Assembly: GCA_017962565.1 (NCBI GenBank)
Contig: JAGCVC010000001.1
Coordinates: forward strand, 9,754-73,753
Direction: 5' to 3'
Length of the DNA: 64,000 nt
Origin: Alphaproteobacteria bacterium
GTDB lineage: Bacteria; Pseudomonadota; Alphaproteobacteria; CAAHEQ01; UBA3637
Position numbers and translations under genes: made by a program. Shown here piece by piece: positions 60,651-62,261 of the stretch (its first letter is position 1; every line of letters begins with the position of its first letter). The notes below the pieces were generated by a model. That model saw nothing but the letters and a program-made list of their open reading frames with translations, had not been told where the DNA came from and ran no database searches.

Positions 60651-62261
60651 CTATTGTGTTCTGATCACAGAGCAGGTAACTCCTTTTTTCGACAACTTAG
60701 CGCAAATTTCATCACCCGTCTTGACATCCTTTACAGGACCAACACGTAACCGGAACAATTCAGGAACCCCGCCTTCAGCAACTGTATCGATTGAATAGTA
60801 CGGGTTATATCCCTTCAGTAATTTTTGGTTCTTTGAACGAACGTTATCCCACATGTTTTCCAAAGTAACCACATCCGAAGCTTGTCCCAATTCAATTGCA
60901 ATATTGTCAATATCCGTTGCACTCAATTGAGCATTTCTTGAACTGTCACACGGCATATCGGCCATTATGTCCATAATCCCTTGTGATGCAGCTTGTGATT
61001 GACGAACACCTTGTGGTAAAGGAGCCATTCCTTGGACCATGTATGGATTTTCGCCTTGGGCACCTTGAGCATAAGCATACGGATCATCCGGTCCGGCAAA
61101 TTGTTCATCGGCTTGATTAGATGCTTGAGGTGCATACCAAGTATTTTCATCAGACCAAGAATAATCTGTATTATCTAATCCCATAGCCGGATCACGACGC
61201 ATTTTCAAACATACAATTCTTTGTCCGTTACGTAAAACCATATCACCAATGCCTTCAACAACCAACAAACGACTGTGTGGACCTTTTGTTCTTGAACCGA
61301 CAGGAACTTCAGAATCTTGAACAATTAAATTAACAATCGGACGTTGTGTCATCGTCAATGCTTTTTTACCAAAATCAATATATGTAAAGATTTCATCACG
61401 CCATACACGTTCCGGAGCTAATTCTATATCACTCGGATTTGGAACGAATACGTCAATATCAAAGCGAAATTTTTCCGGATCAACTGGAATTGTTTCCAAC
61501 CAATTTTTCGGGCCGTTTGTAGCTGTATTCAATCCCGGATTTGGAGACTGACTGCCGCCCGGTGTTAAAGAACCGGCACCACTCCATCCCGGAGCACCCG
61601 AACCACCGGCATAACCTGCTGTTCCCATGGAACCCATATTTACGGAAGCACCGCCGGACAAATTGGATGAACCACCAGCACTGGCCGGTGTGTATTTAGG
61701 GCCGACTATAACGTCAACAACCGCATTGGTAATGCGGTCTGTGTTATAAGTTTCGCTGCGCAAATAGAAAACATATCTGTTTCCGGAACGACCAAAGATA
61801 ATCAAGTTACTGTCAACGCCTAAGAAGGTCGGATCTGCATAAAGTAGTAAAGAGTTCGGTGCGGCAATTTCTCCGCCAAAAGATTCAGGTGATCCGATAT
61901 GTACTTTTTCAATCAATTCCCAAGTCGGCAAATTAATCAATGTCATCATACCTTCACGAAGACGCAACGGCAAAACAACATCCGGAGACCAAATATAACG
62001 GGAATAACCCGGTTTAATTTGACCTTCGCCCATATGTTGCATAGGATCATTCCAAGCTTTCTGTTGCATACCCAAAGATGAAAGATAACTCAAATTCATC
62101 GTATCAAAGCTACCGGCAGTCTGTGCCATTGCATCACTCATCAATGCACCATCAACATCCCCCGGAGCAATTTGTTGCGCATTAGCCACACACACTGCAA
62201 ACGCAAAGACACCTGCGGTGGCCATCATTCCTATTTTCTTAATATTAAGTTGTTTTGACAT
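60651..62261 (-). CDS. virB9: Type IV secretion system protein VirB9, enlarged (536 aa) with Gly-rich insert and C-terminal SPOR-like peptidoglycan-binding domain
   Basis: Signal peptide; VirB9 N-domain (VVLPLRLREGMMTLINLP...LIIFGRSGNRYVFYLRSE) and C-domain (RLLVVEGIGDMVLRNGQRIVCLK); Gly/Ser-rich low-complexity segment; C-terminus FRLRVGPVKDVKTGDEICAKLSKKGVTCSV resembles SPOR. Confidence 0.8.
   Translation of the reverse strand: MSKQLNIKKIGMMATAGVFAFAVCVANAQQIAPGDVDGALMSDAMAQTAGSFDTMNLSYLSSLGMQQKAWNDPMQHMGEGQIKPGYSRYIWSPDVVLPLRLREGMMTLINLPTWELIEKVHIGSPESFGGEIAAPNSLLLYADPTFLGVDSNLIIFGRSGNRYVFYLRSETYNTDRITNAVVDVIVGPKYTPASAGGSSNLSGGASVNMGSMGTAGYAGGSGAPGWSGAGSLTPGGSQSPNPGLNTATNGPKNWLETIPVDPEKFRFDIDVFVPNPSDIELAPERVWRDEIFTYIDFGKKALTMTQRPIVNLIVQDSEVPVGSRTKGPHSRLLVVEGIGDMVLRNGQRIVCLKMRRDPAMGLDNTDYSWSDENTWYAPQASNQADEQFAGPDDPYAYAQGAQGENPYMVQGMAPLPQGVRQSQAASQGIMDIMADMPCDSSRNAQLSATDIDNIAIELGQASDVVTLENMWDNVRSKNQKLLKGYNPYYSIDTVAEGGVPELFRLRVGPVKDVKTGDEICAKLSKKGVTCSVIRTQ

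Follow-up and report, generated by a model that had tools for sequence, protein, structure and literature searches.

An enlarged VirB9 homologue with a C-terminal SPOR-fold domain, a candidate cell-wall tether for an alphaproteobacterial type IV secretion system

The way in which type IV secretion machines pass through the cell wall and hold on to it is understood only in part. This question is raised here by a gene of a 64-kb window (the whole stretch of 64,000 nucleotides that was analysed, from contig JAGCVC010000001.1 of assembly GCA_017962565.1), whose product, judged by its sequence, is the VirB9 of a type IVA secretion system (T4SS) encoded on the chromosome of an uncultured, gut-associated alphaproteobacterium and carries, beyond its VirB9 domains, a long C-terminal addition. 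What is this addition, and to what might it hold on? A first-pass annotation, made from the DNA letters, had described an enlarged VirB9 of 536 amino acids (aa) with a Gly/Ser-rich segment between its N and C domains, about 180 additional aa after the C domain and a SPOR-like domain at the C terminus, and had likened the protein to CagX of Helicobacter pylori. Profile searches, structure prediction and comparison with relatives were used to follow up this description. The reading favoured here, to which a probability of roughly 55% is given on the basis of sequence and modelled structure, is that the C-terminal domain serves as a multivalent cell-wall tether for the T4SS core complex, with a non-canonical specificity.

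Results

Relationship of the C-terminal domain to SPOR domains

The Pfam profile of SPOR domains (PF05036) scored 17.8 bits in the full protein, under its cut-off of 21 bits, and 22.7 bits in the isolated 89-aa domain, which is over the cut-off and marginal for this protein. Among relatives, PF05036 was matched by 22 of 22 isolated domains (best E 2.8e-8) and, at E ≤ 0.01, by 29 of 33 full-length proteins, and it was found as a precomputed annotation on about 40% of the best 120 database relatives. A reference profile was compiled from the experimentally studied SPOR domains of Escherichia coli FtsN, DamX, DedD and RlpA, taken from the K-12 genome; the profile of the C-terminal domain was aligned by hhalign with these four domains over 65 columns (E 1.2e-4, probability 55%). 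When a hidden Markov model (HMM) of the same four domains was searched against 5,701 open reading frames (ORFs) from the window and 80 related loci, most of the approximately 40 listed matches (E ≤ 10) were C termini of VirB9 proteins; every E-value was weak (0.014–7), and the search is therefore supportive only.

Structure prediction with AlphaFold2 (AF2) on the domain alignment gave a predicted local distance difference test (pLDDT) score of 86 and secondary structure elements in the order beta-alpha-beta-beta-alpha-beta. Foldseek comparison of this model with the PDB returned the SPOR domains of CwlC (1X60) and RlpA (6I09, 6I05) at ranks 1–3, with template modelling (TM) scores of 0.64–0.77, and generic ferredoxin-like folds with TM scores of 0.3–0.45 at later ranks. 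A search of PDB sequences with the profile of the C-terminal domain found CwlC at E 0.19, which is not significant. A missing SPOR match together with a confident alternative fold was looked for as the outcome that would speak against the assignment, and was not found. By profile and by predicted fold, the C-terminal domain is SPOR-like, and the fold assignment of the first-pass annotation stands.

Residues of the putative glycan-contact face

In crystal structures of RlpA with bound glycan, contacts are mostly made by the protein backbone, and among the side chains that touch glycan, the only one highly conserved across SPOR domains is a Gln in beta1 (RlpA Q270, FtsN Q251), which hydrogen-bonds the lactyl carboxylate of N-acetylmuramic acid, exposed on removal of the stem peptide, and the N-acetyl group of N-acetylglucosamine; a basic patch (RlpA R302/R309/R311, FtsN R285) assists the Gln and pairs with the lactyl carboxylate (PMC6895207). 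The equivalent Gln of DamX is Q351. In the VirB9 homologue, the Gln column holds Glu457, both in the hhalign alignment and in an independent MAFFT alignment, with the same spacing to helix 1; the beta1 motif reads IAIELG, compared with MVQCG, YTLQLS, YVVQLG and FMVQVG in the E. coli SPOR domains.

Residues at key positions were counted in 154 family proteins. Position 504 is Arg in 143 and His in 10 of them, position 506 is Arg in 152, Gly508-Pro509 and Trp471 are each present in 153, and Cys520 and Cys530 in all 154. Both Arg residues (in beta3) and both Cys residues are contained in FRLRVGPVKDVKTGDEICAKLSKKGVTCSVIR (residues 503–534). On the basis of sequence alignment only, R504 corresponds to FtsN R285, which equals R309 of Pseudomonas aeruginosa RlpA (PMC6895207), and R506, two residues further on, has the spacing of RlpA R311. 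Judged from these alignments, the domain has the basic patch of SPOR domains and lacks the beta1 Gln. The alternation of residues in the strands suggests that Glu457, Arg504 and Arg506 lie on one exposed face of the sheet, and the positions of highest conservation fall on that face of the sheet with which SPOR domains bind glycan. The invariant Cys pair, located in helix 2 and at the start of strand 4, probably forms a disulfide in the periplasm.

Organization of the VirB9 homologue

The CagX/VirB9 profile PF03524 was matched with 44.7 bits (cut-off 34.2) over residues 88–353, aligned with profile positions 5–196 of 198, and was also matched by 33 of 33 relatives; the gene order VirB7-VirB8-VirB9-VirB10-VirB11 fits membership of the VirB9/TrbG/CagX family. 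The VirB9 profile TIGR02781 matched residues 278–352, in the C domain only, with 29.5 bits compared with an equivalog cut-off of 217.7, so the protein is a divergent VirB9 and not an orthologue of plasmid P-type VirB9. In a whole-protein phmmer search of PDB sequences, Xanthomonas VirB9 (6GYB) was found at E 0.56, which is not significant; the alignment placed query residues 88–174 on residues 31–113 of the chain and query residues 245–354 on residues 145–251. From this split, the Gly-rich stretch is recognized as the linker that joins the N and C domains, enlarged to about 70 aa compared with about 31 aa in 6GYB. Its low-complexity core, GGSSNLSGGASVNMGSMGTAGYAGGSGAPGWSGAGS (residues 196–231), contains 13 Gly and 8 Ser in 36 residues, compared with 10% Gly and 8% Ser in the whole protein, and lies between the two halves of the PF03524 match. 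Conserved motifs of the linker are APGW and Q.P..GLNTA..P.NWL, and its length is 59–69 aa among 33 relatives. The alignment of these 33 sequences was also used to measure conservation, given for each region in Table 1 as the mean fraction of sequences with the majority residue. Since its length is held and its conservation is 0.64, the linker is constrained and not mere filler; it is probably structural.

At the N terminus, A28 and Q29, on either side of the predicted cleavage site, are almost invariant in the alignment. A lipoprotein signal at Cys24 was considered and rejected, since a lipobox is missing and the Cys is not conserved. Residues 29–87 lie outside the Pfam VirB9 match, and no Pfam family covers the segment; AF2 predicted helices there at low confidence only, and its conservation is lower than that of the VirB9 N and C domains. 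The N domain is predicted to contain strands at residues 97–185. Beyond the C domain, where the PF03524 match ends at residue 353, about 180 residues remain. They begin with a hypervariable stretch rich in A, S, G, T, Q and P, which is 82–175 aa long in the alignment and 83–180 aa (median 141) in 120 relatives and which, by its sequence, appears to behave as a free tether. Full-length AF2 prediction from the 33-sequence alignment gave a mean pLDDT of 47 and a predicted TM score of 0.25, with strands in both VirB9 regions at low confidence; only the C-terminal domain was confident.

The architecture given in the first-pass annotation (enlarged VirB9, inter-domain Gly/Ser-rich segment, extra C-terminal sequence) is thus confirmed in its parts; it had overlooked the conserved 59-aa N-terminal extension and the occurrence of the protein throughout a lineage. 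The full-protein structure prediction that it had proposed was informative for the C-terminal domain and poor for the rest.

Distribution and conservation

More than 1200 database proteins matched the VirB9 query. The best 120 are 510–617 aa long with near-full coverage, and the named ones among them are all annotated as 'TrbG/VirB9 family' and come from metagenome-assembled genomes (MAGs) of uncultured Alphaproteobacteria or Pseudomonadota. One genome per species was scanned; out of 106 loci found, 80 were retained for comparison. Almost all of these stem from MAGs of gut or rumen origin under the label Alphaproteobacteria; the hosts are humans (the Hadza and other cohorts), sheep, goat, yak, roe deer, buffalo and rabbit. 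The lineage may correspond to the gut order RF32. The bins of four loci (L009, L012, L020 and L078) are titled Lactobacillales, Holdemanella biformis or Limosilactobacillus gorillae; these contigs are most likely mis-binned or mislabelled.

The VirB9 gene was intact, with the same domain order, in 80 of 80 loci. The other members of the module were found in 78 (lipoprotein), 78 (VirB8), 79 (VirB10 N terminus), 71 (VirB10 C terminus) and 70 (VirB11) of the 80, and gene order was unchanged wherever the contig permits. The giant form of VirB10 (median about 2200 aa) was present in 71–79 loci. Identity across loci was 47–93% for the 64-aa lipoprotein, 29–65% for VirB8 and 63–94% for VirB11, and the flanking genes of the window were not conserved among the 80 loci. 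A second VirB8-like gene is present in most related loci (153 members in 78 loci). Most loci also encode several proteins with signal peptides that appear coiled-coil-rich by eye, one of them of about 521 aa in 61 loci, upstream of the lipoprotein gene; in the window this position is occupied by a divergent gene for ribosomal protein L25, so the upstream context differs in this genome. No obvious recurrent cell-wall enzyme (amidase, deacetylase or VirB1-like transglycosylase) was seen beside the module in the 80 loci when the cluster sequences were read without a Pfam scan.

For more distant relatives, a profile search of 1.84 billion representatives was performed, which returned 911 proteins. 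The C-terminal domain was detected with its HMM on 36 of the top 150 of these, and a C-x(7-12)-C tail ends 47 of 87 long relatives (at least 380 aa). One divergent group of domains (LDLG...) is clearly homologous (hhalign 99.4%), and 5 of its 9 members still match Pfam SPOR. A second group (GPY...) gave an hhalign probability of 76% and includes the VirB9 of cultured Microvirga species; its domain is, by sequence comparison, probably homologous to the one described here. The Microvirga gene lies within a complete VirB2–VirB11 plus VirD4 operon, in which VirB10 is an ordinary 588 aa; specific co-evolution of the C-terminal domain with a giant VirB10 was rejected for this reason. The presence of divergent versions on other alphaproteobacterial VirB9 proteins indicates that the appendage is of long standing in a broad clade of alphaproteobacterial VirB9 proteins. 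A tblastn search with the C-terminal domain found no match in 72,556 plasmids.

Genomic context

The VirB9 homologue is gene 3 in a block of five genes that all run in the same direction on the (-) strand (Table 1), with AAGGAAAG as ribosome-binding site approximately 10 nucleotides upstream of its ATG. The 64-aa lipoprotein has no Pfam match, and size, lipobox and position suggest that it takes the role of VirB7. In the giant VirB10, PF21785 was matched in 17 stretches, PF21784 in 9 and PF03743 at residues 2007–2200, and the protein was also matched by NF038091 (T4SS_VirB10). DUF3659 and RHS/YD-like matches were seen as well, in the very long central repeat region that precedes the normal TrbI/VirB10 C terminus. 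Neither VirB4 nor VirD4 was found among the ORFs of at least 400 aa in the window.

The region between the VirB9 and VirB10 genes is predicted to form a stable RNA hairpin (UUGCCCUUU...AGAAGGGCAA) with a minimum free energy of -24.1 kcal/mol (z-score -3.2 compared with shuffled sequences); the sequence 3' of it is A-rich and not U-rich, which rules out a canonical intrinsic terminator.

The remaining genes of the window are ordinary chromosomal ones (DNA polymerase III alpha, UvrD, TatD, ThiF, TrkH, AsmA, cytidylate kinase, ribosomal protein L25). Four further ORFs, of 2526, 905, 423 and 414 aa, possibly encode lineage-specific surface or effector proteins. The 1567-aa and 910-aa ORFs listed at the end of Table 1 are situated in a stretch of lower GC content (about 33–35%).

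Table 1. Coordinates of features in the window. Residue numbers refer to the VirB9 homologue; conservation is defined in the text.
Feature	Coordinates	Strand	Remarks
VirB9 homologue, 536 aa	60651..62261	(-)	ATG start; PF03524 match
Signal peptide, residues 1–28	62178..62261	(-)	predicted cleavage between ANA and QQ, read from sequence; conservation 0.43
N-terminal extension, residues 29–87 (59 aa)	62001..62177	(-)	SLGMQQKAWNDP..H.GEGQ.KPGYS; conservation 0.79, many invariant columns
VirB9 N domain, residues 88–186	61704..62000	(-)	first half of PF03524 match; conservation 0.93 (highest)
Gly/Ser-rich inter-domain linker, residues 187–255 (69 aa)	61497..61703	(-)	conservation 0.64
VirB9 C domain, residues 256–357	61191..61496	(-)	second half of PF03524 match; conservation 0.86
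Hypervariable tether, residues 358–451	60909..61190	(-)	AF2 pLDDT <50, predicted disordered; conservation 0.45
C-terminal domain, predicted SPOR fold, residues 452–536 (85 aa)	60654..60908	(-)	conservation 0.72
VirB7-like small lipoprotein, 64 aa	63164..63358	(-)	lipobox LMAC; module gene 1
VirB8 homologue, 253 aa	62383..63144	(-)	PF04335, E 8e-15
VirB9-VirB10 intergenic region	60546..60650	(-)	predicted RNA hairpin
Giant VirB10 homologue, 2331 aa	53550..60545	(-)	beta-flower repeat region and C-terminal TrbI/VirB10 domain
VirB11-type ATPase, 329 aa	52546..53535	(-)	PF00437 T2SSE, E 1.3e-22; last module gene
ORF, 2526 aa	1631..9211	(-)	no Pfam family at E ≤ 0.001
ORF, 905 aa	28365..31082	(-)	no Pfam family at E ≤ 0.001
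ORF, 423 aa	41909..43180	(-)	no Pfam family at E ≤ 0.01
ORF, 414 aa	43220..44464	(-)	no Pfam family at E ≤ 0.01
ORF, 1567 aa	13722..18425	(-)	weak sub-threshold matches only, to eukaryotic helical-repeat families FANCI_HD2, INTS1, INTS7
ORF, 910 aa	18873..21605	(+)	matches to pentapeptide repeats and BspA-type leucine-rich repeats

Discussion

Proposed role of the C-terminal domain

In the core complex of T4SSs, which has approximately 14-fold symmetry, the VirB9 C domain is part of the outer-membrane-proximal O-layer and the N domain is part of the I-layer (PMC9371333). By homology, the N and C beta-sandwich domains of the protein described here would, after export, assemble with the VirB7-like lipoprotein and the giant VirB10 into the layers at the periplasm and the outer membrane. 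From the C domain in the O-layer, the disordered tether of about 95 residues (82–180 in relatives) would hang into the periplasm, where it could reach the peptidoglycan, and it would end in the 85-residue SPOR-fold domain, probably stabilized by Cys520-Cys530; a folded SPOR domain placed C-terminally to a low-complexity disordered linker is the usual layout of SPOR proteins (PMC6895207). About 14 copies of the domain per machine would grip glycan strands of the sacculus via the sheet face with Glu457, Arg504 and Arg506, and would thereby hold the core complex to the wall from the side of the outer membrane, in the manner in which RlpA presents its SPOR domain. A precedent is provided by the Legionella core-complex subunit DotK, which binds peptidoglycan and helps to anchor and localize the Dot/Icm system (PMC10266036). 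Since Glu replaces the canonical Gln throughout the family, standard denuded glycan, with its free lactyl carboxylate, is an improbable ligand; a modified or different feature of the glycan may be recognized instead. A narrower version of this proposal, in which the Glu, kept in about 98% of the family along with the Arg pair and a new disulfide, marks out a subclass of SPOR domains that binds a different ligand and anchors a type IVA machine in the sacculus via VirB9, is possible and considered unlikely; one candidate ligand would be a positively charged glycan, for example with de-N-acetylated sugars, and not the free lactyl carboxylate.

Competing explanations

Some of the results weigh against wall binding. 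The PF05036 match in the full-length context is sub-threshold and spans profile positions 28–76 only, and in the most divergent VirB9 proteins (the GPY.../Microvirga group) Pfam SPOR is no longer matched. Above all, position 457, the Gln column, is Glu in 148, Asp in 3 and Gln in 1 of the 154 family proteins, which undercuts peptidoglycan binding as deduced from the sequence: exchange of the same residue in FtsN (Q251E) reduces both the binding of denuded glycan and septal localization (bioRxiv 10.1101/2024.05.13.594014). As the Glu is almost invariant, it has been selected for and does not represent a lapse or decay.

In one alternative, the SPOR fold has been re-used as a protein-protein module, which might form an extra periplasmic ring or dock on VirB10, VirB8 or another VirB9 and would not bind the wall; this explanation is possible and considered unlikely. 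Besides the loss of the canonical Gln, it is favoured by the invariant, family-specific residues L467, E468, W471, D517, C520 and C530, which lie outside the SPOR signature, by the distant VirB9 proteins, which have kept no more than the Cys pair and the general pattern of the fold, and by the fact that expanded T4SSs often gain ring-building domains (PMC9371333; the PI domain of CagX, PMC13417560). However, an unconserved tether of 82–180 residues suits a diffuse target such as the sacculus better than a fixed position in a symmetric ring, the conserved Arg pair is located exactly at the site where SPOR domains hold glycan, and the occurrence of the domain beside the ordinary-sized VirB10 of Microvirga shows that it is not tied to a giant VirB10.

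A fully canonical SPOR domain, which binds denuded septal glycan and delivers the T4SS to, or retains it at, mid-cell and new poles, is distinctly improbable. Every characterized SPOR domain binds denuded glycans and localizes to septa (PMC6895207), SPOR fold and Arg patch are present here, and the Dot/Icm system of Legionella becomes polar by assembly at mid-cell and peptidoglycan-dependent retention (PMC10266036); but Glu457 would set a carboxylate beside the lactyl carboxylate that is normally hydrogen-bonded by Gln, and a residue that in FtsN lowers binding and septal localization is, in this family, under selection. An artefact (frameshift, mis-assembly or a chimera of VirB9 with a neighbouring SPOR gene), considered since a metagenome-type assembly is the probable source of the window, is refuted by the continuous ORF with the same domain order in all 80 independent species-level loci and in more than 1200 database proteins.

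Comparison with known systems

In its features the C-terminal domain resembles the SPOR domains of RlpA, FtsN, DamX, DedD and CwlC, which have about 75–85 aa and a beta-alpha-beta-beta-alpha-beta fold of the ribonucleoprotein (RNP) type, are placed C-terminally after a disordered low-complexity linker, and contain the motifs h-x-h-[Q/E]-h-G in beta1 and h-R-h-x-h-G-P in beta3, with beta3 Arg residues at the positions of FtsN R285 and RlpA R309/R311. With the outer-membrane lipoprotein RlpA, whose SPOR domain is likewise C-terminal, it would share presentation from the outer-membrane side. It differs from these domains in the Glu at the place of the glycan-contacting Gln, in the invariant L-E-x-x-W of alpha1, and in its Cys pair, which joins alpha2 and beta4 and not beta1 and beta4 (the disulfide of FtsN is reportedly C252-C312). 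The carrier is also different, being a secretion-system subunit and not a division protein or cell-wall enzyme.

With canonical VirB9/TraO/TrbG proteins (pKM101, R388, Agrobacterium, Xanthomonas 6GYB) the protein shares the signal peptide, the N and C domains of PF03524 and the VirB7–VirB11 gene order; in contrast to them, it has about twice the length, the 59-aa N-terminal extension, a linker lengthened from about 31 to about 69 aa, and about 180 aa of C-terminal tether and SPOR-fold domain. The likeness to CagX proposed in the first-pass annotation holds only loosely. As in H. pylori CagX/CagY, an enlarged VirB9 is encoded beside a very large, repeat-rich VirB10, and as in CagX, the N domain (periplasmic ring) and the C domain (outer-membrane cap) are set apart by extra sequence. 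In CagX, however, the added length is due to a folded periplasmic insertion of 130 aa that separates the two VirB9 domains (PMC13417560), which corresponds at most to the Gly-rich linker and not to the C-terminal module; a SPOR-type module at the C terminus is missing from CagX, and the VirB10 repeats, unlike those of CagY, are of the beta-flower type.

The comparison with Legionella DotK concerns the presence of a cell-wall-type module within the outer-membrane core complex of a T4SS; the VirB9 domain is a candidate wall binder. DotK is a separate lipoprotein subunit of a type IVB system, has an OmpA-like fold and recognizes meso-diaminopimelate of the stem peptide, whereas the module described here is fused in cis to VirB9 of a type IVA system and has a predicted SPOR fold, which is glycan-directed in known cases. 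Peptidoglycan binding by DotK is sensitive to glycan modification (acetylation; PMC10266036).

Significance

In the literature library that was searched, no description of a VirB9-SPOR fusion was found; the pair of CagX and SPOR Pfam families is already visible on many relatives in precomputed annotations. Cell-wall-binding modules added to envelope machines are a recurrent theme, which tempers the surprise. The known wall link in a T4SS core complex is DotK, a separate OmpA-like subunit of the type IVB system of Legionella; if the SPOR-fold domain on VirB9 binds the wall, it would represent a second, independent solution, in a type IVA system. Within a gut lineage about which little is known, it is conserved in more than 100 species, together with a VirB10 of about 2,200 residues, and its near-invariant Glu at the key Gln position is a natural experiment on SPOR specificity. 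As a divergent version is borne by the cultured relative Microvirga, the idea is open to genetic testing. If the domain does bind a changed ligand, the fusion of a peptidoglycan-reading domain to a core VirB subunit would be without precedent, as would a SPOR variant whose specificity has been altered in nature; the domain would be present throughout a lineage of gut Alphaproteobacteria and, in a diverged form, in cultured Alphaproteobacteria.

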